From a virus: DNA of 64,000 bases. Position numbers and translations under genes: made by a program. Below the pieces are notes generated by a model. That model did no database searches. It worked only from the letters and a program-made list of their open reading frames with translations, and was not told the origin of the DNA. This document shows positions 6,935 to 63,233 of this stretch, in pieces (within the stretch, counting starts at the first letter, position 1; each line of letters opens with the position of its first letter). The DNA lies in IMG/VR virus record IMGVR_UViG_3300043433_000028; one strand, 5' to 3'.

Positions 6935-6962
6935 GAAACTTTTTAAATACTTCCAATATAAT
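6935..6962 (+). promoter_or_regulatory. Putative middle promoter GAAAC-N17-TATAAT
   Basis: One of nine copies with an exact 17-nt spacer. Confidence 0.7.
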
Positions 6963-7268: not shown

Positions 7269-8699
7269 ATGAACTTCGTAGACGCATTAAGACAAGAGGA
7301 CATCACAACAGAAAATGGAATGGCAACAAATTCAACTTCTTTGAATGCTTGTGTTGACCTATTCTTTAACATTGGAGCAATGAGAGGACAAGACAAACAA
7401 CGTTTGATCGCAACCTTTTCAAAAGCATTCAATGAAGATCCTAAACGTGCTATGAAACTTTTGTTTTGGGCAAGAGATGTTCGTGGTGGAGCAGGAGAAC
7501 GTCAAGTTTTCAAAGACATTTTAGTTTACTTAGCAGAAAACCACGATTTGGTTCTAAAACCAAACTTACATTTAATTCCAGAGTATGGTCGCTGGGACGA
7601 TTTATTAGTTCTTGTAGGAACATACTTAGAAAATGCAGCATTCACCCTAATTTCTGATGCAATCATCGCTGAAAATGGGTTATGTGCAAAATGGATGCCA
7701 CGTAAAGGAGTTATTGCTGAAAAATTACGTAAATTTACTGGAATGTCGCCAAAACAATATAGAAAATCTTTAGTAGGTTTAACTAATGTTGTTGAGACTA
7801 AAATGTGTGCTAAAGATTGGGACTCTATCGAATTCGGTAAATTACCATCAGTGGCTTCTGCAAGATACCAAAAAGCATTTGGTAAAAATGCATACGAAAG
7901 TTATTCAGCGTATATCCAATCTTTAGTAAAAGGAGAGGCTAAAATTAATGCAGGTGCTGTATATCCTTATGATGTTGTTAAATCATTAAATCACGGTAAC
8001 TCAACTGTAGCAAACGAGCAATGGAAAGCCCTTCCTAATTATTTAGAAGGAGCAAACGATATGATTTTACCAGTAGTTGACGTTTCTGGTTCTATGGATT
8101 GTTCAGCAGGAGGTAGTAAAAATGTAACATGTATGAACGTTGCAATCTCTTTAGGACTTTATATTTCTGAAAGAAATGAAGGTCCTTTCAAAGATGCTTT
8201 TATTACTTTCTCAGATAACCCGCAATTACAAGTATTAGGTGGTTCATTGAACGATCGCTACGCACAGATGGCATCTTCCGATTGGGGAATGTCTACAAAT
8301 CTCGAGGCAACGTTCAAGCTGATTTTAAATCAGGCCACTAAGCATAAACTATCTCAAGAAGAGATGCCAAATAAAATCCTAATCCTATCAGATATGGAAT
8401 TTAATCATGCAACTAGATCTAACGGATGGAGAAATACTGGATCAGATTGGAATCCAACAGCTCAGCAAATGATTGAGAAAATGTACGAAGATGCAGGTTA
8501 CAAAGTGCCTCAAATTGTTTATTGGAACATTCAATCCAGAAATGGTGGAGTACCAGTATCATTTGACAAACAAGGAACTGCGTTGGTTTCTGGATTCTCT
8601 CCAGCAATTATGACAAGTTTACTTGGAGGAGATATTGAATCTCCACAACAAATAATGGACAAAACAATCTTGAGCGAGAGATACGCTCCAATTGTTTAA
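7269..8699 (+). CDS. DUF2828-family TROVE/Ro60-like protein with C-terminal vWA (MIDAS) domain
   Basis: LFWARDVRGGAGER, YGRWDDL, AKWMPR, DVSGSM (DxSxS), ILSDMEF, IVYWNI, GFS. Confidence 0.8.
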   Translation: MNFVDALRQEDITTENGMATNSTSLNACVDLFFNIGAMRGQDKQRLIATFSKAFNEDPKRAMKLLFWARDVRGGAGERQVFKDILVYLAENHDLVLKPNLHLIPEYGRWDDLLVLVGTYLENAAFTLISDAIIAENGLCAKWMPRKGVIAEKLRKFTGMSPKQYRKSLVGLTNVVETKMCAKDWDSIEFGKLPSVASARYQKAFGKNAYESYSAYIQSLVKGEAKINAGAVYPYDVVKSLNHGNSTVANEQWKALPNYLEGANDMILPVVDVSGSMDCSAGGSKNVTCMNVAISLGLYISERNEGPFKDAFITFSDNPQLQVLGGSLNDRYAQMASSDWGMSTNLEATFKLILNQATKHKLSQEEMPNKILILSDMEFNHATRSNGWRNTGSDWNPTAQQMIEKMYEDAGYKVPQIVYWNIQSRNGGVPVSFDKQGTALVSGFSPAIMTSLLGGDIESPQQIMDKTILSERYAPIV

Positions 8700-8708
8700 G
8701 ATATATAA
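8700..8708 (+). promoter_or_regulatory. Putative late promoter GATATATAA driving a non-coding transcript
   Basis: Motif directly after the DUF2828 stop; no credible ORF before the terminator at 9047. Confidence 0.6.
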
Positions 8709-8715
8709 AGAAATT

Positions 8716-9035
8716 AGGTTCCTTACAGCAAACAATACTCAAGCAATTATTAACTAGCAACGGAACGGAACCTGGCGGATAGGTACAGCAAAAAGTACAC
8801 ACAGCTATGATAGAGTCTAGATAAAAACGTGGAGTTTTAAATCGGGTTCGCCCTCTAAAACAATGAAGCGCTAGACAAGGTGAAGGTTAACACTAGAAAA
8901 TGGATCACAAGTCATACCACCCCAATAGGTGCAAGTAGGATGTAGTCGAAGTTTTAGTAGACTCTCGCGAAAGCTAAGCCGAAGACTATAAAGAGGGTTA
9001 TTCTGCCGAGAAGAAAATTACGAACAACTATCCCG
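8716..9035 (+). ncRNA. Candidate structured ncRNA(s), possibly Y-RNA-like
   Basis: Higher-GC intergenic tract with nested helices AGGTTCC/GGAACCT, GGATAG/CTATCC, TATGA/TCATA, TCTAG/CTAGA, GTTTTA/TAAAAC, TAGTC/GACTA; UUCG and GAAA loops; TACAGCAAA twice. Confidence 0.6.
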
Positions 9036-9046
9036 TATTAGATTAG

Positions 9047-9092
9047 AATCCTGGTAAAAATTGTTAATAACTTTTTTAACCAGGATTTTTTT
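9047..9092 (+). terminator. Intrinsic terminator
   Basis: AATCCTGGT...ACCAGGATT followed by a T-tract. Confidence 0.7.
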
Positions 9093-9109
9093 ATGTCAAA
9101 TGTTTTGAT

Positions 9110-9118
9110 TATATTTAC
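9110..9118 (+). promoter_or_regulatory. Putative early promoter -7 element TATATTTAC
   Basis: TATATTTACATATCAAATT is identical to the copy at 22692. Confidence 0.55.
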
Positions 9119-9142
9119 ATATCAAATTAAAACAAATACATT

Positions 9143-9453: not shown

Positions 9454-9729
9454 ATGAACATTTTAGATGAAGCAAGCGGTATCGTAAATAACCGCTCAGA
9501 AGAAGCAGATAGACAATATGGTCCTTTCTCAGAAGGTATGGACAGAGCTGCTATGATTTTTACTGGTATGACAGGAATTGAAGTTACCGGAGAACACATG
9601 TTTAAGGCATTAGTTGCACTTAAATTTTCTAGAGAATCTTACAATCACAAGCGTGATAACTTATTAGATGCAGTTGCATACATCCAAGGATTGGATAACT
9701 ACATCGAAGAAAAACAAAACAATGGTTAA
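9454..9729 (+). CDS. DUF6378-like small alpha-helical protein (family often near nucleotide-metabolism genes)
   Basis: ILDEA..IVN.R...YG.F...ALKFSRES....DNLLDAVAY pattern. Confidence 0.5.
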   Translation: MNILDEASGIVNNRSEEADRQYGPFSEGMDRAAMIFTGMTGIEVTGEHMFKALVALKFSRESYNHKRDNLLDAVAYIQGLDNYIEEKQNNG

Positions 9730-10771
9730 CATTTACGAAGTTTTAGAATCGTTAAAAGGCAAGAAGATTGCAATTGATGATGTTGTAACAACGTATAGCT
9801 CGAAAAAAGCCAGTCATAAAAGTGCATGGGCTTTTCTACTAGCAAATCAATTAAAATCTTTAGGATTGGAGGCAGAAGTACTCACCAAGTCCGAAGATAT
9901 TCATTCATACGATATTTGGATGGTTGCCCTTCCGATGGAATTTCAAGGGTCTTATAATCTATTTGGTGGAGCAACTGATGAGCCAGCGGAGAGAATTAAA
10001 AGATTCTTAGATTTTAAAGGACAAATCTATTGTTTAAACCGTGAAATGCCAGATGTTGGAGCCTTTGCTCAAAGTCGAATGAGAGCATGCTCAGAATTAT
10101 GGGCAACTCTTGATGTTGAAGCACTTACAAAAAGAAGTAAAGAAACCGAAACAATTGAACTTAAATTAAATTCAGGTACTTTTGTCTTAGGAGATTCTCA
10201 CTCAGTTTCAGTGTATCATCCTGGAGGAAACATCAGCAGAAATGATGGTAAAACATTATTTGGTGTTATGAAAGAGGGAATGCAAACCTACATTCCTGAA
10301 GGGACCACTCATTTGATAACATACTTCGGTAATATCGATGTTAGACATCACTTATGTCGCCAAGAAAAACCAGTTGATGCAACTAAAAAACTTGTAAAGA
10401 ATTATTTTGAACATCTAAAATCTCTTAATATTGAAAAGATTTCAGTTGTTAAATTACTTCCAATTGAGTTTGAAGAACGCAGAATCCCAAAGACTGGATA
10501 TTACAAAGGAACCCCATTTATCGGTTCTCAGCGAGAAAGAACTCAGTTAATGCAGATCTTTAACGAAGAGGTTGTAAATCTCTCGGCTATATATAATATG
10601 AATGTAATCGAATGGCCAAGTAATTGGTACGAGGAAGATCCAAAGTATTTTGCTGATACTTATATGGAGAAACCAGGTTCCGTTCATTTATCTAGAGAGT
10701 TTTATCAATATGATTTCGAGACGTCCGAAAAAAATAAAACATTAAAGAAAACTATTAACAGTCTTTTTTGA
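9722..10771 (+). CDS. T4 beta-glucosyltransferase-like N-terminal domain fused to an SGNH-like domain; putative DNA-modifying transferase
   Basis: KIAI...GLEAEVL...SYD...SYNLFGG...KGQIYCL parallels recalled T4 BGT; C-domain GDSH, GNID, SVHL; start moved to ATG 9722. Confidence 0.5.
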   Translation: MVNIYEVLESLKGKKIAIDDVVTTYSSKKASHKSAWAFLLANQLKSLGLEAEVLTKSEDIHSYDIWMVALPMEFQGSYNLFGGATDEPAERIKRFLDFKGQIYCLNREMPDVGAFAQSRMRACSELWATLDVEALTKRSKETETIELKLNSGTFVLGDSHSVSVYHPGGNISRNDGKTLFGVMKEGMQTYIPEGTTHLITYFGNIDVRHHLCRQEKPVDATKKLVKNYFEHLKSLNIEKISVVKLLPIEFEERRIPKTGYYKGTPFIGSQRERTQLMQIFNEEVVNLSAIYNMNVIEWPSNWYEEDPKYFADTYMEKPGSVHLSREFYQYDFETSEKNKTLKKTINSLF

Positions 10772-10797
10772 AACTTTTTAAATAAAGCAAGTATAAA
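10770..10797 (+). promoter_or_regulatory. Putative middle promoter GAAAC-N17-TATAAA
   Basis: Motif and spacing match; lies upstream of ino1. Confidence 0.7.
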
Positions 10798-10824: not shown

Positions 10825-12021
10825 ATGAACAAAATTAAAGTTGGAATTATTGGCACAGGAAATTGTGCAAAATCATTGGTTGAAGGAGTTCAATTCTATA
10901 CAGAAAATACGAACAACATTACTGGAATGATGAAATCTGATATTGGAGGTTACAAAGCCGAAAATATTGAATTCGTATGTGGATTTGAAATCGACGAACG
11001 TAAAGTTAACCAAACTTTAGGAGTTGCTTTAAAACAAAAACCAAACTGTGCGTATGACATCGTTGATGTTATTACTTCTACAGCTCCGGTTTATGAAGCA
11101 CCTGTTATTGATGGTTATGCTGCATTAATGGATAACTATCCAGAATCAAACAGATTTTTAGTTGATGAGAAATTAAGAAACTCAACTGATAAAAATCGTA
11201 CTGATTGGACTCCTAGAAAATCTAGAGAGTGGAAGGACCAAATCATCGCTAAATTAAAAGAGCATGAAGTTGAAGTATTGGTAAACTATTTACCAGTAGG
11301 TTCTCAAAAAACTACAGAATTTTGGGCTGAAATTTGCTTAGAAACTGGAATCTCTTTCGTAAACTGTATTCCTGTATTTATTGCATCAGACCCAGCATGG
11401 GAGCAAAGATTTATCGACGCTGGAATTCCATTGATCGGTGATGATATGCGTTCTCAATTTGGAGCAAGTATTCTTTCTCAAATGTTGCAAGAACTTGCAT
11501 TTGAAAGAGGTCATCATGTAAAAGCGCACATTCAACGTAATGTTGGAGGTAACACAGATTTCTTGAACATGGAAGATAAATCTCGTTTAGCTTCTAAAAA
11601 GATTTCTAAAGAAAACGTTATCCGTGCTCAAAATGAAATTAGAGGAATCTCAACTGAAGATTCATTTTTACATGCAGGTCCTTCTGAGTATATCTCATTC
11701 TATGGAGATAACAAAGTTGCTAACTTCCGTTTAGAACTTGAAGGATTTGGAGGAGCGCCAGTTCTTTTTGATGCTCAATTAAGTGTGCAAGATTCACCAA
11801 ACTCTGCAGGAGTTGTGATCGATGCTATCCGTTACTTAAAAGTAGCGAGAGAATTAGGAGTTGTAGGAGCATTAAGAGGTCCTTCAGCGTTTACTCAAAA
11901 AACTCCACCAGATCAAATGATGTTTTCTGATGCTGTTTATGAATGTACTGAATTAGCTGCAAGACGCTTAACTGATTCTACAAGAAAGCAATTAGTTGCA
12001 AAAACTAATAAAGCTCTTTAA
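10825..12021 (+). CDS. ino1: myo-inositol-1-phosphate synthase (bacterial type)
   Basis: GIIGTGNCAKSLVEG Rossmann motif, VNYLPVGS, FVNCIPVFIA, GDDMRSQFGA, NVGGNTDFLNM, KKISK, DSPNSAGVVID. Confidence 0.93.
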   Translation: MNKIKVGIIGTGNCAKSLVEGVQFYTENTNNITGMMKSDIGGYKAENIEFVCGFEIDERKVNQTLGVALKQKPNCAYDIVDVITSTAPVYEAPVIDGYAALMDNYPESNRFLVDEKLRNSTDKNRTDWTPRKSREWKDQIIAKLKEHEVEVLVNYLPVGSQKTTEFWAEICLETGISFVNCIPVFIASDPAWEQRFIDAGIPLIGDDMRSQFGASILSQMLQELAFERGHHVKAHIQRNVGGNTDFLNMEDKSRLASKKISKENVIRAQNEIRGISTEDSFLHAGPSEYISFYGDNKVANFRLELEGFGGAPVLFDAQLSVQDSPNSAGVVIDAIRYLKVARELGVVGALRGPSAFTQKTPPDQMMFSDAVYECTELAARRLTDSTRKQLVAKTNKAL

Positions 12022-12036
12022 TTAATTAATCTATGA

Positions 12037-12064
12037 AAAGAGAGCTCAAGGGCTCTCTTTTTTT
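12037..12064 (+). terminator. Intrinsic terminator
   Basis: AAAGAGAGC-TCAAGG-GCTCTCTTT followed by a T-tract. Confidence 0.8.
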
Positions 12065-12081
12065 ATCAAAAAAGTCAGGGA

Positions 12082-12483
12082 ATGTTAAATATTTTTAAAA
12101 AGAAACAAACTAACGTCGATGTTTATGGATATGATTTCGACGGAGTAATTTCAATAGGAATTACACCAAGATCAGAAAGCGACGTTATTATAACAGGAAG
12201 ATGCGTTGATGAACAAGAAGAAATCAAAGCAATCTTAAAAGAACGCGGGATTAAATGCAAAGTTTATTTTAATCCAATGACTCTTGCAGAGCGAGGAAAT
12301 CATACAACAAAAGCAAGGAAATTTTCTGGTTATCACAAAGCTAAAACAATACGAGAACTTTTAAATAACGGAGTTAATATTATTAGATTCTTTGAAGATG
12401 ATCCAATTCAATATCAAATCATCCAAGAAAATCATCCGGAATTACAAATTGTAAGCGTAGTATCTTCATTAGTAAAGAAATAA
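12082..12483 (+). CDS. Small capless HAD-superfamily phosphatase
   Basis: DFDG motif I, ITGR motif II, conserved K, FEDD motif IV. Confidence 0.75.
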   Translation: MLNIFKKKQTNVDVYGYDFDGVISIGITPRSESDVIITGRCVDEQEEIKAILKERGIKCKVYFNPMTLAERGNHTTKARKFSGYHKAKTIRELLNNGVNIIRFFEDDPIQYQIIQENHPELQIVSVVSSLVKK

Positions 12484-12485
12484 AT

Positions 12486-13163
12486 ATGTGGACAGTAGAG
12501 CAAAAGCAATTAAATAAATTAAAACGAGAATACTGCTCATATTTAGATGCTACTGAAAGAATCGATAGAGACATGATTAAAGATTGTCTTAAGCATTATA
12601 TACATGATGATGTTGATTATAGTGGCAAAGTATGTTTAGACTTAGGCGGTAACGTTGGGGGATTTACAAAAATTGCAATCGACGGAGGAGCATCAGCTGT
12701 TTATACAGTAGAATGCGATCCAAGAAATTATGCAAAATTATCAAATAGTTTCGCAGAAGAACCAAAGGCAAATATTATCCATGCTGCTGTTTCTGGGTGT
12801 GATGATGAAACTATTAAGATTTATAAAGGAAATTCAGCAGGATCACATTGTTCAACTTCAATTCTTAAAAGAAGTTCATTTGGAGAATATGATGAGGTTA
12901 GAAATATTCACATCAAAGAATTATTAGAAACATACAAACCAGATATTATCAAAATTGATATTGAAGGAGCAGAGTATGATATAATTCAAGATGTTGCTGA
13001 TTATTATCCGGAAGTTATCTTTGTAGAATTGCATATGGGTAAAGTAAAACAATTCGCACAGCCAACAATTGAATTATTAACTTCGTTATACCCAAAAAAT
13101 CAAGTTAATAGTTTTGAAGTTTTCAAACATATCGGAGGTTACGATTGCTGGTTTAAAAAATAA
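12486..13163 (+). CDS. FkbM-family SAM-dependent methyltransferase
   Basis: LDLGGNVGGF, VECDP, HAAV, IKIDIEGAEY. Confidence 0.85.
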   Translation: MWTVEQKQLNKLKREYCSYLDATERIDRDMIKDCLKHYIHDDVDYSGKVCLDLGGNVGGFTKIAIDGGASAVYTVECDPRNYAKLSNSFAEEPKANIIHAAVSGCDDETIKIYKGNSAGSHCSTSILKRSSFGEYDEVRNIHIKELLETYKPDIIKIDIEGAEYDIIQDVADYYPEVIFVELHMGKVKQFAQPTIELLTSLYPKNQVNSFEVFKHIGGYDCWFKK

Positions 13164-14245: not shown

Positions 14246-14713
14246 ATGGCAAATATAGACAATGAATGTAAAGATTTGGAAGTAAAAAACTTTTACGATG
14301 AATCTACAACACACTTAGCCGACATCATGGAAAACCAAAAGAAAATGCAAGAGCAAACTTATGGTTTTAATTTCGAAGAGATGTCAATTAGAGATATTAT
14401 GAACTTTTGGCATGTTAATACACATGCTGTAGTTGATGAAATTCACGAAATGACAGATGCTCTTGGAGGTATTAAAGATGGGAGCGGAAATGCAGTATGG
14501 AAATACTGGAAAAAAGACTTTTCAAAGTTTGAAACAATGAAAATTTCTGATCTTTCAGAAGATGACAAGAAAGAACTTTATATGGAATGGGTAGATATTT
14601 TACACTTCTTTATAAACTATGCATCTTCAATCGGATTAGATGCAAAAACAGCATACAATTATTACTTTGCGAAAGCAGAAGAAAATGTTAACCGTCAAAA
14701 AAGAGGATATTAA
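14246..14713 (+). CDS. gp56: T4 gp56-like dCTPase/dUTPase (all-alpha NTP pyrophosphatase)
   Basis: DEIHEM..ALG...AVWKYWK...EWVDILHFFIN...ENVNRQKRGY closely parallels T4 gp56. Confidence 0.8.
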   Translation: MANIDNECKDLEVKNFYDESTTHLADIMENQKKMQEQTYGFNFEEMSIRDIMNFWHVNTHAVVDEIHEMTDALGGIKDGSGNAVWKYWKKDFSKFETMKISDLSEDDKKELYMEWVDILHFFINYASSIGLDAKTAYNYYFAKAEENVNRQKRGY

Positions 14714-16111
14714 ATGATACTAGACATCGAACAGCGTGAAAAAGATGTAATCATTTCATACTATAATGACAAAGGAGAAGTAGCATTCAAACAATATCCA
14801 GTGGACAAGTTCCAAAACTGGTATGTTTGTGATGATAAAGACAGAGCGGCTAGCCCAGAATATAAAAACTGGGACGGCCGTTCGGTCAAATTAGGATATG
14901 GAAGACAATTTAATAAGTTTTCTATTCTTTATTTCTTAGATAGCCTTTCTGAGAAAGATAAAGCTGACTTAACAGCTTACAATATGCCGAAAACTTATTT
15001 CGTCGATATTGAAACTGAGATTGTTGATGGATTCCCAAAAGCTGAAGAGGCTAAAAGTAGAATTCTTTCATTCTCAATCATTACGCCAGATCGTAAAGCA
15101 ATTGTATTGGGTCTTGAAGATATGGAATCTGATAAAATCCAAAAGATTCAAGATGATACTAATGAGTATTTCAAAGATTTTGATATGGACTGGGAATTTA
15201 AGTACCATAAGTTCAAATCTGAATATGATATGGTGAATACATTCTTAATGAAATTCTTACCTAAATTTCCAATGATGACAGGATGGAACTTTATCAACTA
15301 TGACTGGCAATATATTGTTAATCGTTGTAAAAGACTTCAAATTGATATTAAAGAAGTTGGAATGACAGGAGCTATAGATAATACCGATGGTCGTCCATTA
15401 CATATTGGAATTCTTGACTACATGCAGTTGTATGATAAATATGACCGTTCGGTTAAGGTAAAAGAATCAAACTCTCTTGATTATGTTTCTAGTCAAGTCC
15501 TAAAAGTTAACAAGATTAAATTTACTGGATCTCTTCAAGATTTATATCGAGATAATTTTGTTAAATATATCTACTATAACGTAGTCGATTCAGTCCTGGT
15601 TTATTATATAGACCAGAAATTAAAATCGATGGAGGTACTTTTAACTCTTGCAAACATTACAAACATGCCACTTTATAAGGCAAGTTCTCCAGTGGCAGTT
15701 ACTGAGGCGATTATGGCCAGAAAACTTGCAGAACAGGGAATGAGAATTGGAAGTGAAGAAAAAGCAGATGGTCAAAAAGATGGCCAATATGCTGGAGCAT
15801 TTGTAAAAGAACCAATTCTAGGATTTTATGAAGGAGTAAGTGCATTTGACTTTGCTTCACTATATCCTTCAATTATGCGTCAGTTCAATATATCACCCGA
15901 CGCTTACATTGAAAAGATTTATAAAAGTGAAATTGATGAAAGACGCAAAGACAAGAACGTAATTGTATGTGATAATGGAGTAGTATATAAGACCGAAGAT
16001 TCGATCCTTAGAAAGATATTAAGTGACTTATATGCGCAACGTAAAGATTACAAGAAAACTTCATACGAATACTTTACAAAAGCCGACAGGTTATCTAAAA
16101 GACTTAGATAA
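14714..16111 (+). CDS. gp43A: Family B DNA polymerase, N-terminal half (3'-5' exonuclease + motif A)
   Basis: DIETE, TGWNFINYD, YNVVD, DFASLYPSIMRQFNISP; ends in the first fingers helix. Confidence 0.9.
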   Translation: MILDIEQREKDVIISYYNDKGEVAFKQYPVDKFQNWYVCDDKDRAASPEYKNWDGRSVKLGYGRQFNKFSILYFLDSLSEKDKADLTAYNMPKTYFVDIETEIVDGFPKAEEAKSRILSFSIITPDRKAIVLGLEDMESDKIQKIQDDTNEYFKDFDMDWEFKYHKFKSEYDMVNTFLMKFLPKFPMMTGWNFINYDWQYIVNRCKRLQIDIKEVGMTGAIDNTDGRPLHIGILDYMQLYDKYDRSVKVKESNSLDYVSSQVLKVNKIKFTGSLQDLYRDNFVKYIYYNVVDSVLVYYIDQKLKSMEVLLTLANITNMPLYKASSPVAVTEAIMARKLAEQGMRIGSEEKADGQKDGQYAGAFVKEPILGFYEGVSAFDFASLYPSIMRQFNISPDAYIEKIYKSEIDERRKDKNVIVCDNGVVYKTEDSILRKILSDLYAQRKDYKKTSYEYFTKADRLSKRLR

Positions 16112-17177: not shown

Positions 17178-17999
17178 ATGAATTGGACAATCATATATAA
17201 AAACCTAATAGATAATGCAATCCTAGAAAAAAGAACCAAAAGTACTGAAATATATTATGAAAATCATCATATTGTCCCAAAACATATGGGAGGTGATAAT
17301 TCAAATGATAATTTAGTACTTTTGACATTTAGAGAGCATGTATTAGCGCACTATTTATTATGGCGAATTTATAAAAAAGATGGCGATAAAATAATGCGGT
17401 TACTTCGAAGCAATCAAAAAGAAGAGGCTCAACTTCTTCGTTCTAAATTAGCAGTTGCATCAAATAGAAATGGAGGTAAAGGATTTCAAAATTGGAAAGG
17501 AGAAAAGCATCCACTAAAAGATCCATTAAAAGTTAAACAGGCATTAGAAACCAAACGAAAAAATTACGATGGTGAATTAATGTCAAAGGAAGTTAAAGAA
17601 GTATGGCTTCCAAATCTTATAAATAGAATGAAGGAAATGGCAAAGGACCCTGAAATACAAGAAAAAAGGTCTAATACCATTAAACAAATTAATGCAACCC
17701 TAACGCCGGAAGAATTTGCACTAAAATATAATAATGCCGGCGAAAATAATGGAAACTTTGGTTGGATTAAAGGATATTATGAAGTAATCGACCCTAACGG
17801 AAACATTACTAAATATGAAAGCCAAGAAAACATTATAAAAGAGTTAAATGTATCTCAATCTTTTTTAGTTAGAAATAGAAATAAAGGAGTATTGTATACA
17901 AAACCAAAGAAAAATGCCGGACAATGGAACGGATGGACTTTTAATTATTTTAAGCTCCCATGTCCAACTACGGGTAGAATACAAAAAGAACACAAATAA
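17178..17999 (+). mobile_element. Free-standing HNH homing endonuclease gene between nrdB and nrdA (MobE-like position)
   Basis: ENHHIVPKHMGGDNSNDNLVLLTFREHVLAH. Confidence 0.85.
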
Positions 18000-19697: not shown

Positions 19698-20381
19698 ATG
19701 AATTGGAAAAGAGTGCACGATCAAATTATTGAAAGAGCTCAGAATAGAACTTTAGAGGGATATTCTGAGCTTCATCATATATTACCAAAATGCTTAGGCG
19801 GTAATGATGATAAAAATAATTTAATTAAACTTACCGCAAGAGAACATTTTATAATTCATAAGATACTAAATATTTTGCATCCTGAAATAGAGGGTCTTAG
19901 GTATGCTGTATGGATATTTGTAACTTTTAATGACAATAGAGGTATTAGAATAGGTTCAAGAGAATATGAAAGACTTAGAACATTATTTTCAAAAAGTGCC
20001 TCAAAAAGAATGAAGATAAACAATCCATCACATAGCGGATTATCTAAAGAACATAAAGAAAAAATATCAAAGGCTGGAGTTGAAAGATTTAAAGATCCTA
20101 ATGAAAGAATTAAAGCTAATTCCTTTAAAGATTTAACAGACGAAGAACGTAAGAAAAGAATTAAAGTTTGGTCAAATGCATCAATGGGTCCAAAGAATGG
20201 AAGATTTAAATGGGACAAACGCGTTAATCAAATTGATAAAGAATCTGGAGAAATTATAAACGTATATGAATATCCTAGATTAGTTCAAAATGATGGTTTT
20301 AGTTCAAAATATGTTATTAATTGTTGTAATAAAAAGTCAAAGTCTCACGGTGGATTCCTATGGGAATGGCGTGAAGGATAA
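19698..20381 (+). mobile_element. Free-standing HNH homing endonuclease gene with NUMOD-type DNA-binding tail
   Basis: ELHHILPKCLGG...NNLIKLTAREHFIIH; C-terminal CCNKKSKSHGGFLW. Confidence 0.85.
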
Positions 20382-20515: not shown

Positions 20516-21595
20516 ATGATTCCAATTAAACTTTTCGAAGAATTCTTGTACGAAGAAAATCTTAAAAATAAATATGCTAAAAAAGTAGCATGGGTAATGA
20601 AAACTCATGACATACATGCAACCTCCGGCGATGTTAATGGCCGAGAGAAGAAATATAATATTGATGCAAAAGGAAATTTATTCCTAAATTATGCAACAAA
20701 GGAAGATTTCGAAAATGATGAAGTTGTAGTACCTGAAAATGTTCCAATCCTTTATTATGGAGGTGCAGTAGATCCTGAGGCAATAGGATTCTTAAAGAAC
20801 AAAAACATTAATAATGACAATCTTTATAATAAAAGAGAGTTACTTCAATTATCTGGAGATAAAGTAAAGTTTGCAAAAGCTGCTTCAGAATTTGAATGGC
20901 TTCCAAAAACAGTTTTTAGTAAAGAAGAGGCTATCGATGGCGCTGTTGGTTTTCCAGTAATTGCGAAAATCAAAGACGGGCATAGTGGATTAGGTATTCA
21001 GAAATTTGATAGTGCTAAAGAATTAGAAGGGAGCGATAAAGAATTTGATCTTTTCTGTCAATTTATAGATTTTGATAGAGAATATAGAGTAATGTTCTGT
21101 AAAGACAAGATATTCGTTATTAACGAAAGAGTACCTAGAATAGAAGATGATCGATCAATTAAGACCAAAAAAGCCGATGAAAAAATAAGTTTTACTTATG
21201 TTTATCAGGACCAAAACAAAGTTGATCCTGAATTTATTGAAAGTGTAATGTCAATTTGTAAAGATGTTAAAACTTTCTTAGACCTAGATTTATGGGCATT
21301 GGACATTGTAGTTGACAAAAAAGGAAAAATGTGGATTATGGAAACTTCATCTGCTACCGGACTTGGAAGTGTTAAAATGTGCGAAGTTTATAAAGCAATG
21401 TATGAAGATTTTTATGGCGAACCACTTGACGAAGAATTCTTAGAAGATATTTATTTAAAATATGTTGTTCCAGGACATCAAAACTATTATCCTAGATTTA
21501 AGAAAGAAATTGAATCTTCAAAATGGCCAATGGATTACACAGTACTGACAAATCCAAAGACTAAAGATGGATATAAATATTTTTTTAATTTATAA
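20516..21595 (+). CDS. RimK-like ATP-grasp ligase with capsid-targeting-like N-terminus
   Basis: LPKTV, FPVIAK..GHSGLGI, QFI...EYRV, ALDIV...WIMETSS; starts MIPIKLFEEFLYEE. Confidence 0.8.
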   Translation: MIPIKLFEEFLYEENLKNKYAKKVAWVMKTHDIHATSGDVNGREKKYNIDAKGNLFLNYATKEDFENDEVVVPENVPILYYGGAVDPEAIGFLKNKNINNDNLYNKRELLQLSGDKVKFAKAASEFEWLPKTVFSKEEAIDGAVGFPVIAKIKDGHSGLGIQKFDSAKELEGSDKEFDLFCQFIDFDREYRVMFCKDKIFVINERVPRIEDDRSIKTKKADEKISFTYVYQDQNKVDPEFIESVMSICKDVKTFLDLDLWALDIVVDKKGKMWIMETSSATGLGSVKMCEVYKAMYEDFYGEPLDEEFLEDIYLKYVVPGHQNYYPRFKKEIESSKWPMDYTVLTNPKTKDGYKYFFNL

Positions 21596-21600
21596 TCAAT

Positions 21601-22650
21601 ATGAAAGTAGGAATATTTAAAACATCGTATAAAGAAAACGAAAAAAGATTACCAATCTATCCTGATCATATCAAGAATATAGATCCATCCTTATTAAAAG
21701 AACTAATCTTCGAACATGGATATGGAGAAGATTATGGATATACTGACTCTGACCTAGAAAGTTGGGGATGTTCTTTAGGGAGTAGAGAATCTCTATATGA
21801 TTGCGATATTATTATACTTCCAAAACCAATCGCTGCTGATCTTGAGCAAATGAAAGAAGGCGGTATATTATGTGGATGGACTCATGCAGTTCAACAACGA
21901 GATATTACAGATCTTGCAATCGATAAAAAACTTACTCTTTTGGCATGGGAAGAGATGAATATTGAAAACAAACACGGAAAGCTACATATTTTCTATCGTA
22001 ATAATGAGTTAGCAGGATATGCTGGAGTATTACACTTTTTAGAATTAAAGGGAATGGATGGACATTATGGTCCAAGAAAAAACGTAGTAATCTTAGGATA
22101 TGGTTCAGTAAGTAGAGGAGCTATTTATGCATTACATGGTCGAGGATTCAACAATATTACTGTATATACTCAAAGAGAATCTCATTTAGTTGCTGATAAA
22201 AATCCAGACGTTTACTATAAATCATTTCAAAATGACGATCTAAATAAAGATCTAGCTGAAGCCGATATAATCTTTAACGGTATTCTACAGAATGTAAATG
22301 CACCCTTAAATTATATTGAAACACAAGAACATTTAGATTCTTTAAAAAATAATACCGCAATAATCGATATTAGTTGTGATAGTGGAATGGGATTCTTTTT
22401 TGCAATTCCAACTTCTTTTGAATCTCCAATCATCGAATTAGAGAGAGGAATCTCATATTATTCAGTCGACCATACACCGACTTATTTATGGAACGCCGCT
22501 TCCCGCGAAATTTCAAGTGCATTACTTCCATATTTAGAGACAATAATAGATCCTAAAAAATGGGAAGATAACCCAGTTGTTAAAAGATCAATCGATATTA
22601 AAAATGGAGAAATCATAAATCAAAACATAAATAAATTTCAAAAAAGATAA
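21601..22650 (+). CDS. N5-(carboxyethyl)ornithine synthase-like NAD(P)H oxidoreductase (AlaDh/PNT family)
   Basis: KENEKRLPIYP, EHGYG, GWTH, NELAGYAGV, GYGSVSRGA, IIDISCD, DHTPT. Confidence 0.8.
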   Translation: MKVGIFKTSYKENEKRLPIYPDHIKNIDPSLLKELIFEHGYGEDYGYTDSDLESWGCSLGSRESLYDCDIIILPKPIAADLEQMKEGGILCGWTHAVQQRDITDLAIDKKLTLLAWEEMNIENKHGKLHIFYRNNELAGYAGVLHFLELKGMDGHYGPRKNVVILGYGSVSRGAIYALHGRGFNNITVYTQRESHLVADKNPDVYYKSFQNDDLNKDLAEADIIFNGILQNVNAPLNYIETQEHLDSLKNNTAIIDISCDSGMGFFFAIPTSFESPIIELERGISYYSVDHTPTYLWNAASREISSALLPYLETIIDPKKWEDNPVVKRSIDIKNGEIINQNINKFQKR

Positions 22651-23194: not shown

Positions 23195-23944
23195 ATGAAA
23201 GTAGTTATCAACAAAGTAGATCAGAACAACTTTGTAGCATTCATTAATCGTTTGAGAGTTATTGATTCCTTTGTCTATTTTAAGATTAAAGACGAACAAA
23301 TCATCTCTTCAGCTTATTTGCCACAACGTGACGCTGTAAAACACCACAGACTTCCAATTTCAGAAGTATTCCAAATTGATGCAAGTCAATTAACAACAGA
23401 CAAAGACCTTAAAGTGGCTTTCTTTGACGCTGGAAAAATCATCGAAGCATTCAAACAATTTGAATACGATTCTATTCAAGCAGAAATTGAATTCGTAGAA
23501 AACGATGAAGACTGTGTAGCTTCTACATTTAAAATCTTTAATGACGAGTTAGAAATCGTTTTAGCTTGTTCAGAACCATCTTTAGGTTACAAAGATTTGA
23601 CAGAATCTCAATTACAAAATATCTTCATGACAGAAGGCGCTGAAGTTAATTTTGATTTATCATACACTGATACTTCTAAAATTAAATCTCTTTTCAACTT
23701 AGATAAAGATGAAACTTTTGCAATCTCAACTTCTAAAGAAGGTGTTCGTATCAAAGGTAAATCTTACAACAAGTTAATCAATTCAGCTAGCGTTTCTAAG
23801 GCTAATGTGACTGTTTACAAAAAGTATTTGAACTTATTTGACAAAGAAGATTATTCTACTTATGTCTTTAACAATAGAGTAGTTTTACGCTCTAAAGATT
23901 CAAACACTCTTTTAACAATCGCAACTTGCCAAAGCACTGATTAA
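23195..23944 (+). CDS. gp45: Probable sliding clamp (gp45-like)
   Basis: 249 aa acidic alpha/beta protein translationally coupled to the polymerase half; assignment mostly from size and context. Confidence 0.6.
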   Translation: MKVVINKVDQNNFVAFINRLRVIDSFVYFKIKDEQIISSAYLPQRDAVKHHRLPISEVFQIDASQLTTDKDLKVAFFDAGKIIEAFKQFEYDSIQAEIEFVENDEDCVASTFKIFNDELEIVLACSEPSLGYKDLTESQLQNIFMTEGAEVNFDLSYTDTSKIKSLFNLDKDETFAISTSKEGVRIKGKSYNKLINSASVSKANVTVYKKYLNLFDKEDYSTYVFNNRVVLRSKDSNTLLTIATCQSTD

Positions 23945-25140
23945 TGACTATTGAAAAACTACTTAATAAACCAGAAGACCAACTAACATTGGCCGAGCTT
24001 AAATCCTTAGCAGACTTTTATTCAAATGAGTCTGCTAAGTTTACAGCATATGAACAAGCAGTTAAGTTAACTCTTAACTCGATCTACGGAGCCTTTGGTA
24101 ATAAGTGGTTTCACTTCTTTAACATCGACATTGCCGAATCTATTACTTTGCAAGGTCAAAATGCAATCTTATATTCTGAAAAGATACTTAACAAGTACTT
24201 TCAAGAATTCTTTGTCAAAGATACTAAAATTCATGAAGAATTAAATATCAAAGTTAAAAGAGCTTGCGTTAAACCTGCAGTAATTTACATCGATACTGAC
24301 TCAAACTATGTTCAGTTTCAAGAGATGTATGAATCTATCGAATGGTTAGGTGAAAAACTAGATATTGTAACGTTTATCCTTAAGATTTACAACTTACGTA
24401 TCAAAGATTACATCGTTAAATCATTAGACAAATACGCTGAAAATAGAAACACAGAATCGTTCTTGGTTTTCGAATTAGAATCTATTGCATACTCAGGTAT
24501 TTGGATGGCTAAAAAGAAATACTTACAGAATTTAGCATGGGACGATAAACTAGGTGAAAGCGAAAGACATGCAATGTTAAAGAAGATCAAAACTATTGGT
24601 TACGATACTATTCAATCTTCAACACCGATGTTTGCTCGTAAGAAACTATCAGAAGCCCTACAAATTCTTTTTGAAAAGAAGCCAACACCAGAAACTCTAA
24701 CAACTATCGTTTCGTTTCTTAAGAAGGCAAAGAAAGAATTTAAGTTAGCTCCAACTGATGAGATCTCTTTTAATAAGAGAACAAACAACTTAGAGAAGTA
24801 TATCGTTGACGATCACGTTGAGTTTCAATATGGATTAAAATGTCCACCTAATGTTAAAGCAGCTGGATTTTACAATTACTTGATGAATAATAATCCCAAG
24901 TATAAAAACAAATACAGAATGATTGGTAATGGTGAAAAGCTAAGATTATATCATTGCGAGCATAAAACTTGTGAGATCTTTGCATATTTACCAGGTGATC
25001 ATCCTTATGAATTTGCACCGGCAATTGATTATGAAACTCAATTTGAAAAATCTGTAATTGATCCATTGAATAGAGTTTTAGACTGTATAGGTTTACAGAC
25101 ATTAAATAGAAATTTAATTTATTCAACATCATTATTTTAA
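23944..25140 (+). CDS. gp43B: Family B DNA polymerase, C-terminal half (motifs B, C, thumb)
   Basis: KLTLNSIYGAFG, YIDTDS, KKKY, IGYDTIQSSTP. Confidence 0.9.
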   Translation: MTIEKLLNKPEDQLTLAELKSLADFYSNESAKFTAYEQAVKLTLNSIYGAFGNKWFHFFNIDIAESITLQGQNAILYSEKILNKYFQEFFVKDTKIHEELNIKVKRACVKPAVIYIDTDSNYVQFQEMYESIEWLGEKLDIVTFILKIYNLRIKDYIVKSLDKYAENRNTESFLVFELESIAYSGIWMAKKKYLQNLAWDDKLGESERHAMLKKIKTIGYDTIQSSTPMFARKKLSEALQILFEKKPTPETLTTIVSFLKKAKKEFKLAPTDEISFNKRTNNLEKYIVDDHVEFQYGLKCPPNVKAAGFYNYLMNNNPKYKNKYRMIGNGEKLRLYHCEHKTCEIFAYLPGDHPYEFAPAIDYETQFEKSVIDPLNRVLDCIGLQTLNRNLIYSTSLF

Positions 25141-31338: not shown

Positions 31339-32133
31339 ATGAAACAGTATCATTACACATATCAAATAATTAATTTACTAAATAAAATATCTTATATAGG
31401 TTTAAGAACTTCTAATATAGAACCTGAGAAAGATTTAGGTCATAAGTATTTTTCTAGCAGTACTGATAGTCTCTTTATGAAAGAGCAAATTGAATATCCT
31501 CTAAATTTTAAATATGAAATATTAAATGTATTTGATAATAGATTAGAAGCTATTAATGACGAAATGCGATTACATGAGATGTATGACGTCGGATCTAATC
31601 CAATGTTTTATAATAAACAAAAACAAGGCTCTCATGTAATAGATTTTACAGGAAAAAATCACACTGAAGATTCTAAAATTAAAATAGGCGTTGCTAGCAA
31701 AGAAAGAGGTATTAGCGATAAAGCTCGTGAAAATTTACAATGGCATGGTAAAAATAGAAAGAGAACTGAAGAAGAAAAAAAGAAAATGGCAAATGCCAAA
31801 TTAGGCAATACCAATGCTTCAGGAAAAAGATCGGAAGAAGTAAAAAGAAAAATATCAGAAGCAAAGAAAGGTAAAGAATCTTCATTTAAAGGTAAAACAC
31901 ATTCTATTGAATCAAAGAAAAAAATGTCAAATGCTAAATCAGGCGATAATAATCCAAAATATTGGAAAGGCAAAAATAGATTAGATGAAACTAAACGTAA
32001 AATATCTGAAAATAGAAAAGGAAAAGGAACAGGACCAGCTATTAAAACAAAATGTCCGCATTGTAAAAAAGAAGGCGGTTATTCTGCAATGATGAGGTGG
32101 CATTTTAATAACTGTAGTAAAAAGAATATATAA
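31339..32133 (+). mobile_element. Free-standing GIY-YIG (Seg-like) homing endonuclease gene with NUMOD3 repeats
   Basis: YTYQI...SYIG, HTEDSKIKI / EEKKKMAN / HSIESKKKMS repeats, C-terminal CPHC. Confidence 0.85.
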
Positions 32134-56194: not shown

Positions 56195-58789
56195 ATGAAA
56201 TTTAATCCAGTACAGGCAATCCAGTCATTATTCTCACCGTTAGATAAATTAAGTGCAGTTTCAGAGGCAGAATTTATCTTGACACAAGATATTCATAAAG
56301 TTTTAACAGTAGATTTAAAAGGTGCTGCTAATGATATGGCTTCTGAATTATCTACACAAACTTCTATATTAAAAGATATTAGATCCCTAATCAAAGATCA
56401 AATTAAAGAATCTAAAAGAAGTAATGATAATAATTCTGGAAGAAATCAAGGAGTTGAAAGCTCTGGTGGATTTCAACCAATGTCTATGAAAGATACTGGC
56501 TTAACTGCTGTAATGATCATAGGTGTTGCGGCTGCGTTAGTTTCTGCTGCGGCTATATTCATGTTTATGCCAGTTTTAAATCCTTTACAGTTGCTATCTG
56601 CGCTTGCAGTAGCAGCAACTATAGCTTTAGTGGCTCCGGTGTTTGTTAAAATAGCAGACGTTCTTGGAAAAAATCAAGGTCTTATAAGCGCAAGTTATGG
56701 CGGTTTCTCAGGTTCAAAACCAGATACTAGCAATATGTTCTCTATAATGGGTGCAACTTTATTGACTATGGTTGGAATTTCAGTTTCATTAGTTATATCC
56801 GGTGCTATATTATCTATGATGCCAGTTATTGGTGCTGGACAATTTTTAACAGCCTTAGCTATTGGTCTTATTATGATTCCTTCAGCTTATGCATTTGTTT
56901 TATTTGCAAAAACAATCAAAGACAACGAGTTAAAACCTAAAGATATGGGCATGGTTGTCCTTTCATTTCTTGGCGTAGCTGCAGGTATTGTTGGAACTGC
57001 ATTAATATTTCAAATGTTGCCAGATACTTATAAAGCGCCAGATTTATTATGGTCGCTTCAGGTTGGTTTTGCAGTTGCATTATTTTCAGTTTCATTCTTT
57101 TTAATTATGAAAGCTGTAAAAGGAGCTACTATAAAACAAATCGCATTTGGTTCATTGGCTATTGGAGCAATCGCATTAGGCATCGTAGGATTATCTTATG
57201 CTTTTCAATATTTACCAGATGGCAAATATAAAGCCCCAGATATGACATGGTCGTTAATCGCTGGAACTGCCGTTGCATTATTCGCAGTTTCATTCTATTT
57301 TGTAATGAAAGCGGTTAAAGGTGCTAGTCCACAAGAATTACTTTACGGTGCTATAGCCATTCCATTAATAGCAATCGCAATTGCAGGTGTTGCTTGGGTA
57401 TTTTCACAAGCTGCTAAAACTTTAGATGGATTAAAAGGCCCAGATCCAGTTGAAACCTTAAAGGCAGGTTTAGCTATTTTAGTTTTTGCAATTCCATTTG
57501 CTTTATTAGCCATTGTATTCCAAAAATTTGGAGTAGGTGCTAAAGAAGCTTTAATAGGTATTTTAGGAACTGTGGCAGTAGCTGTTGCAATTTTAGCAGT
57601 TTCTCACATATTTTCAGTTTTACCAGACACGTTTAAATCACCACCTTTAGAATGGGCTGCAAAAACAGCTGCAGCTATTGGTATATTTGCAATTCCAGTT
57701 GGAATTATAGGCGCAATCATCGCTGCTTCTGGTGGTACAGGTGCATTAGCTCTTTTAGCCGGTGTGGTCGGTGTTATATTAATTGCAGGTGGTATTTGGG
57801 CTGTATCTTGGATTTTAAGTAAAGTACCAACTGACTTTGTTGGCGGTATGGACTCATTAACACAGGGATTAATGAAGCCATTAAATGGTATGATCGACGT
57901 ATTTTCAAGATTAAAAACAGAAATAGGTATTGAAAATATGCCAGCTTTAGCAGGTGGTATTGTTTTACTTGCAGGTGCATGGTTAACATTAGTTGGAGCA
58001 TTAGCTGGTCAAGCAATTGGAGGCTTAGGCGCTTCTATTGCTAATCTAGGTAAATCTATTATAGATGGTATAAGTTCATTTTTTGGCGGTGAAAAGACAA
58101 AATCACCAATAGATTTGCTTGACATGATTTTAAATAGAGCAAACGCAATCACAACTATATCAAAACCTATGGAAACTGTAGCCAATTCATTTGGTAAAAT
58201 TGCAGGTTATACAGGAGGAGTAGTCAAAGGATTGGGTGCATGGGGTACATTCATTGAAGAAAAAAATGCTGAAAATTTAGAACGTAGTGCGGATGCTTCT
58301 AAAAAAATAGCAGATTCATATACTAAATTTGCCAAAGCTGCAAATGGTTTAAATATTAAAGCTGTTCAAGCTTCTACTGCAATGTTTACATCTATTGCTA
58401 ATTTAGCTAAGCCAGACGCGCAGAACGCAATGAAAATTTTAACACAAGATCTTTTAAAGGCAGTAACTGAATTAAGTAAAACTGTAGTTAATTTAGAAAC
58501 AGCTGTTGAAAAACAAGGTGATAATACAGCTGGAATCATGGAAGAAACTGGTAAAGCTATCGGCGGATTTGTTAAAAAGGTAACAGACGTTGTTACTAAC
58601 ACTGACACTAAAGTTGCAAAATCTATTCCAAAAACACCAGAACAAGTTAAAGCAGAACAAGCTAAAGCAGCAGATACAACAGCGTTATCTAAAGATATTG
58701 CAACATTAACTCAAGCTTTAAATATGTTGGTTCAAAAATTCAACGACAGTTCAGGACAAAATGCACCATTCGTAAGACTTGCACAGTAA
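56195..58789 (+). CDS. Tape measure protein-like, with many hydrophobic helices
   Basis: Position after the chaperone; Ala/Gly-rich helices; 65-70 aa internal repeats. Confidence 0.75.
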   Translation: MKFNPVQAIQSLFSPLDKLSAVSEAEFILTQDIHKVLTVDLKGAANDMASELSTQTSILKDIRSLIKDQIKESKRSNDNNSGRNQGVESSGGFQPMSMKDTGLTAVMIIGVAAALVSAAAIFMFMPVLNPLQLLSALAVAATIALVAPVFVKIADVLGKNQGLISASYGGFSGSKPDTSNMFSIMGATLLTMVGISVSLVISGAILSMMPVIGAGQFLTALAIGLIMIPSAYAFVLFAKTIKDNELKPKDMGMVVLSFLGVAAGIVGTALIFQMLPDTYKAPDLLWSLQVGFAVALFSVSFFLIMKAVKGATIKQIAFGSLAIGAIALGIVGLSYAFQYLPDGKYKAPDMTWSLIAGTAVALFAVSFYFVMKAVKGASPQELLYGAIAIPLIAIAIAGVAWVFSQAAKTLDGLKGPDPVETLKAGLAILVFAIPFALLAIVFQKFGVGAKEALIGILGTVAVAVAILAVSHIFSVLPDTFKSPPLEWAAKTAAAIGIFAIPVGIIGAIIAASGGTGALALLAGVVGVILIAGGIWAVSWILSKVPTDFVGGMDSLTQGLMKPLNGMIDVFSRLKTEIGIENMPALAGGIVLLAGAWLTLVGALAGQAIGGLGASIANLGKSIIDGISSFFGGEKTKSPIDLLDMILNRANAITTISKPMETVANSFGKIAGYTGGVVKGLGAWGTFIEEKNAENLERSADASKKIADSYTKFAKAANGLNIKAVQASTAMFTSIANLAKPDAQNAMKILTQDLLKAVTELSKTVVNLETAVEKQGDNTAGIMEETGKAIGGFVKKVTDVVTNTDTKVAKSIPKTPEQVKAEQAKAADTTALSKDIATLTQALNMLVQKFNDSSGQNAPFVRLAQ

Positions 58790-59712: not shown

Positions 59713-59718
59713 TATAAT
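59691..59718 (+). promoter_or_regulatory. Putative middle promoter TAAAC-N17-TATAAT
   Basis: Motif and spacing match. Confidence 0.6.
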
Positions 59719-59735
59719 TCAGATAACACTGAGTA

Positions 59736-61426: not shown

Positions 61427-61436
61427 ACAGTATCAT

Positions 61437-63228: not shown

Positions 63229-63233
63229 CAATT

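Follow-up and report, generated by a model that had tools for sequence, protein, structure and literature searches.

Several described hypermodification pathways of phage DNA act on thymidine. In phages M6 and ViI a P-loop kinase turns the hydroxymethyl group into a leaving group, and an enzyme of the aGPT-Pplase superfamily with an essential Cys and an essential Glu then puts an amine or the hydroxyl of a serine in its place (PMC8989533). The ViI protein gp247 is an example of such a transferase that accepts an oxygen nucleophile (PMC8989533). Phosphate activation is common to the pathways of M6, ViI, PaMx11 and SH-Ab 15599, and the T-even phages use nucleotide-sugar transfer, as carried out by T4 beta-glucosyltransferase (BGT) on 5-hydroxymethylcytosine (hmC) in DNA. 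Here we analyze a stretch of 64,000 nucleotides (the window) from IMG/VR virus record IMGVR_UViG_3300043433_000028, in which a gene at positions 9722 to 10771 encodes a protein with a BGT-like N-terminal domain followed by an SGNH-fold domain, an architecture that appears not to have been described before. This two-domain protein very probably has a role in modifying hmC-containing DNA, and its family points to a third route of hypermodification.

The window has a GC content of 32% and carries almost all of its genes on one strand. By inspection of the translations its source is a large T4-like phage with recognisable portal, capsid, terminase, sheath, UvsX, helicase and split family-B polymerase genes; the hidden Markov model (HMM) test among these genes covered the N-terminal half of the polymerase. 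Statements made below at the level of whole genomes are drawn from relatives of the window phage.

Domain architecture of the two-domain protein

The start codon of the gene overlaps the stop codon of an upstream gene for a DUF6378 protein. Because 104 of 117 aligned homologues begin within one residue of position 9722, an in-frame ATG at 9668 is an unlikely start. The family is large (1,163 homologous clusters, with 672 representatives at 50% identity) and matches PHROG 13881 and the N-terminal part of PHROG 17781, both of unknown function and one of them a 795-residue fusion. Pfam, NCBIfam and PDB sequence searches with the full protein or its profile returned nothing meaningful, and matches to uS15/S13 were rejected as chance hits centred on an Asp-Ser-His motif. 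AlphaFold gives a confident model of the full protein with two domains, at a predicted local distance difference test score (pLDDT) of 92 and a predicted template modelling score (pTM) of 0.90. The features of the gene are as follows.

9722 to 10771, plus strand: gene for the two-domain protein, 349 residues, BGT-like N-domain and SGNH-fold domain (open reading frame, fold and profile evidence)
9761 to 10165, plus strand: N-domain, residues 14-148, homologous to T4 BGT 1-138, the acceptor/DNA side of the GT-B fold (structure and profile)
9812 to 9817, plus strand: Ser31-His32 pair, family-specific and not a BGT feature (94-97% conserved)
9956 to 9970, plus strand: loop Asn79-Leu-Phe81-Gly-Gly83, equivalent to BGT Asn70-Phe-Phe72-Gly-Gly74 (profile alignment)
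10166 to 10735, plus strand: SGNH-fold domain, residues 149-338 (fold search, ESM Atlas)
10190 to 10201, plus strand: block I, Gly-Asp-Ser159-His, with predicted nucleophile Ser159 (99-100% conserved)
10328 to 10339, plus strand: variant block III, Gly-Asn204-Ile-Asp206, with Ile where the oxyanion Asn canonically stands (conservation)
10667 to 10687, plus strand: variant block V, Glu316 (100%) to His322 (98%), with Asp missing at the D-x-x-H position (conservation)

A fold search with the whole protein returned the SGNH half only, and the N-domain was therefore folded separately (pLDDT 96.8). Its best match among 48,161 PDB chains is T4 BGT, with a Z-score of 6.9 and a root-mean-square deviation (rmsd) of 3.0 over 105 aligned residues, model residues 14-148 lying on BGT 1-138. 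Upon re-alignment ranks 1-4 are all BGT entries (Z 7.8, 7.7, 6.9 and 6.9) and rank 5 is T4 alpha-glucosyltransferase, with the leading matches spanning Z 7.8 to 6.1. BGT also has the highest query TM-score, 0.55, among the 50 Foldseek matches listed, at a weak E-value of 8.7e-3, and the ESM Atlas returned a PF09198 cluster at TM 0.56. At the level of profiles, comparing the alignments of the N-domain and of BGT with hhalign yields a probability of 97.1 (pairwise E 6e-11, score 72.8) for a match that stops at residue 106/98; in a local rerun of this comparison the score was 69.3, whereas 100 block shuffles did not exceed 26.4 and the reversed control reached 15.6. Across 148 N-domains PF09198 likewise leads the Pfam families, hit by nine members with a best E of 3e-4, and the two matches that were inspected lie below its cut-off. 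Z-scores below 8 are inconclusive alone, but sequence and structure methods agree, and we therefore accept the kinship: the N-domain is homologous to that of T4 BGT, with a likeness beyond chance. The original prediction, made from the letters of the sequence, had proposed a BGT acceptor domain fused to an SGNH domain. This architecture is borne out, with BGT on top in both the profile and the fold comparisons, and all eight motifs that it quoted are present (residues 14, 44, 60, 77, 95, 157, 203 and 320).

Similarity to BGT (PF09198; PDB 1qkj, 1c3j) amounts to an N-terminal Rossmann domain at about 20% identity that retains the Asn-x-Phe-Gly-Gly loop, and extends to hmC in DNA as the predicted substrate. 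Among divergent representatives Asn79 is 94% and Gly83 92% conserved. In BGT-DNA structures the Asn70-Gly74 loop and Arg115 touch DNA, and by register Arg119, conserved at 83%, is a possible counterpart of Arg115. The retained loop suggests that the N-domain would bind duplex DNA and flip the base. Unlike BGT, the protein has Trp36 at the position of BGT Glu22, and has gained the Ser31-His32 pair and the SGNH domain. The catalytic base of BGT is Asp100 (10.1101/2023.12.21.572611). Its equivalent is unconserved in both of the possible registers, position 106 being Asn in our protein and Asp in 40% of the family, and position 108 being Asp in 16%. Also absent is the second, UDP-glucose-binding Rossmann domain, which in BGT bears the invariant residues Arg191, Arg195, Arg269 and Glu272; the C-terminal half here is the SGNH fold. 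Lacking both the UDP-glucose domain and a conserved Asp100 as catalytic base, the protein is not a glycosyltransferase.

The SGNH assignment rests on a fold match with Z 12.6 and rmsd 3.3 over 164 aligned residues, and almost all of the best 50 matches are SGNH proteins; Pfam GDSL gave no match to the protein. Shared with TesA, PAF-AH, OatA-C, PatB and AlgX (Z 10-12.6) are the block I Ser, a block II Gly-x-Thr and the block V His. In contrast to the canonical superfamily pattern, the block III Asn is shifted, the block V Asp is absent, the conserved set is rich in Arg and His, and the predicted substrate is DNA; we know of no SGNH enzyme that acts on a DNA base. In block II, with a register from sequence alone, Gly176 (70%) is followed by Thr178 (98%). 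Reading this block as a P-loop was rejected, its Lys being only 44% conserved. In block III, whose register we set against the G-x-N-D consensus, Asn204 (86%, with Ser in 10%) lies one residue ahead of the canonical Asn. Position 319 in block V varies among Gln, Arg, Lys and Gly, and the invariant Glu316 is a candidate for the catalytic acid. Residues conserved at 98-100% in the 50%-identity representatives are Gly157, Asp158, Ser159 (99%), His160, Thr178, Asp206, Arg208, His210, Arg253, Glu316 and His322, and the Ser, His and Glu remain near-invariant down to about 25-30% identity. Active SGNH enzymes with an altered block III exist, as do members with a catalytic dyad (PMC9487903), and the site looks catalytic, if non-canonical. 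As a separate observation, an ESM Atlas query with residues 149-340 recovered a cluster of stand-alone SGNH look-alikes (1,557 members, 218 residues, 91% viral, score 0.96).

The operon, its helical partner and the payload genes

The two-domain gene lies in an operon of the order DUF6378, two-domain protein, inositol synthase, HAD phosphatase, FkbM, PF18723 protein, dCTPase and polymerase, which is kept in many viral contigs. The neighbouring features are as follows.

9454 to 9729, plus strand: small DUF6378 protein, near the two-domain gene in 68 of 79 loci and upstream of it in the maps inspected
10770 to 10796, plus strand: GAAAC-N17-TATAA site resembling a promoter, before the gene for inositol synthase (motif scan)
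10825 to 12021, plus strand: myo-inositol-1-phosphate synthase (PF01658 E 7.5e-23; TIGR03450 E 3e-87, below its cut-off)
12082 to 12483, plus strand: small HAD-type phosphatase, putative inositol-phosphate phosphatase (weak PHROG 415 match, E 4e-4; Asp-x-Asp-Gly motif), placed after the inositol synthase in gene maps
12486 to 13163, plus strand: FkbM-family O-methyltransferase (PF05050 E 3.8e-17), fused to the partner and the two-domain protein in P0132
13172 to 14221, plus strand: helical protein of the aGPT-Pplase superfamily (PF18723, clade H) that has no kinase domain, with invariant Glu303-x3-Cys307
14246 to 14713, plus strand: all-alpha NTP pyrophosphohydrolase, dCTPase/dUTPase-like (PHROG 173 E 1.5e-12)
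14714 to 16111, plus strand: family-B DNA polymerase, N-terminal half of a split gene (HMM/PHROG)

In 63 loci with enough flanking sequence, scored for a partner within 6 kb, a helical partner lies beside or is fused to the two-domain protein in 58 (36 of clade H and 22 of clade X); neither is nearby in the other five, one of which has an X protein elsewhere in its genome. The inositol synthase accompanies clade H in 35 of 36 loci and occurs in none of the other 27. A pyridoxal phosphate (PLP) enzyme of the PALP type accompanies clade X in 20 of 22 loci and never clade H. Because the H/synthase and X/PALP pairings show no cross-over, the payload genes follow the partner and not the two-domain protein. 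The sole H locus without a synthase is that of 44RR2.8t, which has no synthase in its genome and carries an adjacent sugar symporter of the vSGLT clade. That clade includes inositol transporters.

These counts bear directly on the cyclitol transfer that the original prediction had raised. A two-domain protein that itself moves inositol to the flipped base would suit its place directly before the inositol-phosphate synthase in most H-type loci, but 27 of the 63 loci have no synthase nearby, the synthase occurring only with clade H, and the protein has no nucleotide-sugar domain, nor was an inositol-activating enzyme recognised. We consider this reading highly improbable.

The cassettes resemble the described thymidine pathways. 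A TS-family (thymidylate synthase) hydroxymethylase, an NTP pyrophosphatase and a helical protein with Glu-x3-Cys, putatively of the aGPT-Pplase type, are shared with the pathways of M6, ViI, PaMx11, PhiW-14 and SH-Ab 15599, and a PALP enzyme in one cassette type and the proposed activate-then-substitute logic are shared with the scheme of 5-HMUDK, aGPT-Pplase/AADT and PLP enzyme. The X cassette (two-domain protein, X, PALP enzyme, TS homologue) mirrors that of M6 (AADT gp51, PALP gp52, kinase gp54, TS homologue), with the two-domain protein in the place of the kinase. In contrast to the thymidine pathways, the predicted base is cytosine rather than uracil, the PF18748 (5-HMUDK) kinase was not found, the partner comes from PF18723-like clades rather than PF18724, and the payload genes include inositol synthesis or import. 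In its working the proposed system is akin to the kinase/AADT pathways, from which it departs in two defining features, the kinase and the specificity for uracil. A search for PF18748 in which M6 served as positive control gave no match in four genomes, three of them complete and the fourth a relative at 77% completeness; phmmer found no 5-HMUDK-type kinase in the window or the loci; and none of the five genomes searched for PF18724 yielded it. ESM Atlas look-alikes, of which 11-36% of members carry PF18723, link clade X to the aGPT-Pplase superfamily, and a Glu-x3-Cys motif is common to H, X, M6 gp51 and gp55. Direct alignment of clade H or X to M6 gp51 is not significant, and the PALP neighbours match M6 gp52 weakly (E 0.05 or worse).

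Fusions of the two-domain protein number 21, of which 19 involve clade X and two clade H, and all 15 longer homologues are fusions. Examples are the H fusion ORF233c of 44RR2.8t and an FkbM-H-two-domain triple fusion in P0132. Such frequent fusion would suit a non-catalytic subunit that targets the helical enzyme to DNA, and inactive SGNH folds do exist, the OSK domain of Oskar being among the structural matches. Nevertheless, the Ser, His and Glu stay near-invariant in distant homologues and the protein stands alone in Aeromonas phage 25 and Tenacibaculum phage PTm1, which makes a non-catalytic role, or one unrelated to DNA bases, quite unlikely.

Several loci deviate from these arrangements. 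A BGT homologue or a TET-associated glycosyltransferase (TAGT, PF20691) replaces or accompanies FkbM in three of them (L015:3404-4441, L032:3353-4375 and L026:10797-11642), and the BGT homologue in some operon copies is full-length, with E 9e-10 to PDB 1bgt. An X-type cassette (L058:9183-9980 and 11198-12304) has an inserted CitG-like triphosphoribosyl transferase, and this locus also encodes a divergent second paralogue of X (hhalign probability 74). In Aeromonas phage 25 (L002:5671-7852) a UDP-galactopyranose mutase and a GT-B-looking gene suggest galactofuranosyl-hmC DNA; the latter gene was called GT-B by eye and has no Pfam or PDB support.

Substrate base and proposed chemistry

The window has no TS-like gene, and the base is indicated by its relatives. 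Related genomes, including an 86%-identical relative, encode a second thymidylate-synthase homologue besides ThyA. In ThyA numbering, position 177 of these homologues holds Asp, position 143 holds Asp or Glu, and Asp169 is kept; this was read in proteins from 44RR2.8t and phage 25, from four IMG/VR genomes and from a fifth contig, and in several that are encoded beside the two-domain gene. This combination is the signature of a hydroxymethyl-dCMP synthase (PMC13326640). None of the second homologues is of the dUMP type with Asn at 177, all having Asp. In 44RR2.8t gene 42 is present, and neither alpha-gt nor beta-gt is annotated at the usual sites, nor is there a BGT match. Because the homologues bear the dCMP-type signature, we take the substrate to be hmC rather than 5-hydroxymethyluracil (hmU); hmC-DNA, which is the acceptor of BGT itself, is the likely substrate. 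Where the original prediction had left hmC and hmU side by side, the former is favoured and the latter rejected, and the role in DNA base modification that it foresaw is supported. Additionally, the second homologue of phage PTm1 (L094:1444-2121) has Asn at the position of ThyA Asp169, the signature of a 5-hydroxy-dCMP synthase (PMC13326640), and PTm1 may carry 5-hydroxycytosine alongside its divergent two-domain homologue.

Our preferred reading, which we hold tentatively, is that the two-domain protein O-acylates hmC in place of the kinase and that the helical partner then replaces the ester by a payload, in this phage probably inositol or methylinositol. This combination of O-acylation and exchange is the most economical because the two-domain protein is the constant component and has the hmC-acceptor domain, and because the payload follows the partner. 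The phage would make hmC-DNA by means of a dCMP hydroxymethylase and the dCTPase, as its relatives suggest. The BGT-derived N-domain would bind the duplex and present hmC as T4 BGT does, and the SGNH domain would load an acyl group (in the simplest case the acetyl of acetyl-CoA) on Ser159 with the help of His322 and probably Glu316. From Ser159 the acyl group would be passed to the 5-hydroxymethyl oxygen, a chemistry and donor proposed from the observed fold and residues. The resulting acyloxymethyl would be the leaving group, in the role that the 5-HMUDK phosphate has in the thymidine pathways, and the Glu-x3-Cys of the partner would swap it for a small nucleophile, by analogy with M6 gp51 and ViI gp247. 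In the window phage this nucleophile would probably be myo-inositol supplied by the synthase and the HAD phosphatase, and FkbM might O-methylate it. For the clade-X cassettes the probable nucleophile is an amino acid, which the PLP enzyme would process afterwards. At loci without a partner, acyl-hmC could be the end product. The complete scheme, in which an SGNH serine acyltransferase with a domain borrowed from BGT esterifies hmC in the duplex and a glycosylase-fold partner installs inositol or methylinositol to give an inositol-ether cytosine, is possible but more doubtful than acyl activation as such. Acyl transfer, proposed originally as well, is supported as the likeliest chemistry. A described enzyme with a related reaction is PaMx11 gp48, which like the predicted activity transfers an acyl group to a modified pyrimidine in DNA, but as a GNAT-fold N-acetyltransferase acting last, on 5-aminomethyl-dU, whereas the SGNH protein would probably act by early O-acylation.

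A number of observations weigh against the activation model. The loci are not independent, 29 of the 36 H loci forming one cluster at 60% identity. Because they form only 14 such clusters in total, the locus counts overstate independence; the pattern holds at the cluster level, with the synthase in three of four H clusters and PALP in four of six X clusters. An hhalign comparison of clade X with clade H is not significant, so that the tie of X to the superfamily consists of the Atlas look-alikes and the Glu-x3-Cys motif. In phages 25 and PTm1, which carry the two-domain protein, neither an H nor an X partner is detectable, and phage 25 likewise gave no ADDT match; in these phages the activation step would therefore be without follow-up. 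The kinase search could miss a divergent kinase, and locus L119 does have a P-loop kinase gene next to a fusion, probably a dNMP kinase. Within the protein itself, blocks III and V are non-canonical and the invariant Arg and His residues at 173, 208, 210, 253 and 273 could equally suit phosphate chemistry. Finally, we found no published biochemistry or modified-base analysis for any phage that carries the family.

The conserved Arg and His residues raise the alternative that the SGNH scaffold has been repurposed for a non-acyl activation, such as placing a phosphoryl or other anionic group on the hydroxymethyl. The position and co-occurrence of the gene would suit this equally well, as would the invariant Arg/His/Asp/Glu cluster and the deviant blocks III and V. 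Yet Ser, His and acid are all kept in the SGNH frame, the block II Lys is poorly conserved and there is no P-loop, and we know of no SGNH phosphotransferase. We regard this alternative as unlikely.

Loci such as that of phage 25 bring in another alternative, namely that the protein is a finishing O-acyltransferase that acetylates, as the last step, a hydroxyl on a sugar or cyclitol already attached to hmC, comparable to the SGNH domains of OatA, PatB and AlgX or to capping by PaMx11 gp48. Polysaccharide O-acetyltransferases (OatA-C, PatB) are indeed among the fold matches, and in a published discussion a hydrophobic block III is said to tip the balance from hydrolysis towards transfer (PMC9487903). 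The phage 25 gene comes after the mutase and the GT-B-looking gene and has no helical partner, and some other loci add a true BGT or TAGT. However, the payloads differ (inositol, amino acid, galactofuranose) and yet the protein is conserved, at 50% identity between 44RR2.8t and phage 25; the helical partner would be left without a leaving group, no kinase having been found; and the N-domain derives from an enzyme that accepts bare hmC. Such a finishing role is in our view somewhat unlikely, though less so than the other alternatives. An esterase or deacylase that acts on acylated modified bases, precursors or adducts made by the host, in maturation, proofreading or unmasking, would fit the fact that most top structural matches are hydrolases and that no membrane acyl-donor partner (MBOAT/AT3) is seen in the operon. 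Against hydrolysis stand the failure to recognise an acylating enzyme in the cassette and the conservation of the protein across cassettes with unrelated payloads, and we judge this role to be improbable too.

Further features of the window and implications

The GAAAC-TATAA motif with a spacer of 15-19 occurs nine times in comparison with 2.4 expected, a count reached in one of 100 shuffles, and GAAAC-N17-TATAA sites lie in intergenic positions before genes at window positions 6935, 7218, 10770, 23136 and 43252 on the plus strand. They are probably a phage promoter class; a scan for sigma-70 promoters gave chance-level results. The family-B polymerase is apparently encoded by two genes 8 kb apart (14714-16111 and 23944-25140), the second half being assigned by inspection only. 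A DUF2828/DUF7788 gene (PHROG 850, RNA-binding) at 7269-8699 is followed by a gap of about 440 bp without long open reading frames (8700-9142) that holds repeated ACAGCAAA words and is a candidate non-coding RNA partner; the gap has no Rfam match and a folding z-score of only -0.43. An ATP-grasp-like gene (by eye) adjoins an alanine-dehydrogenase/transhydrogenase-like gene (TIGR00518 E 1e-18, well short of the cut-off) at 20516-22650. A series of unknown proteins of about 260-330 residues at 58789-63959, including a DUF6734 protein and a 2OG-Fe(II) oxygenase-like gene, is possibly another modification cluster. Homing-endonuclease-like reading frames lie around nrdA and after a gp46-like gene, as judged by inspection (17178-17999, 19698-20381 and 31339-32133).

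A literature search returned no paper on this family or on SGNH enzymes acting on DNA bases, although Iyer et al. 2013 may hold a prior computational mention, and no paper on inositol-modified phage DNA or on the DNA chemistry of 44RR2.8t. If true, the proposed scheme would give DNA hypermodification a second general chemistry of activation, with an inositol-ether cytosine so far undescribed as one of its products, and an hmC-acylating enzyme would be a new handle for labelling or sequencing the epigenetic base hmC. The cultured carriers, Aeromonas phages 44RR2.8t, 31 and 25, make the question directly testable. The family extends over more than 1,100 sequence clusters from T4-like myoviruses and smaller phages, and its activity would explain how hmC may be protected in 44RR2.8t and 31, whose dCMP hydroxymethylase is not accompanied by a recognisable glucosyltransferase.

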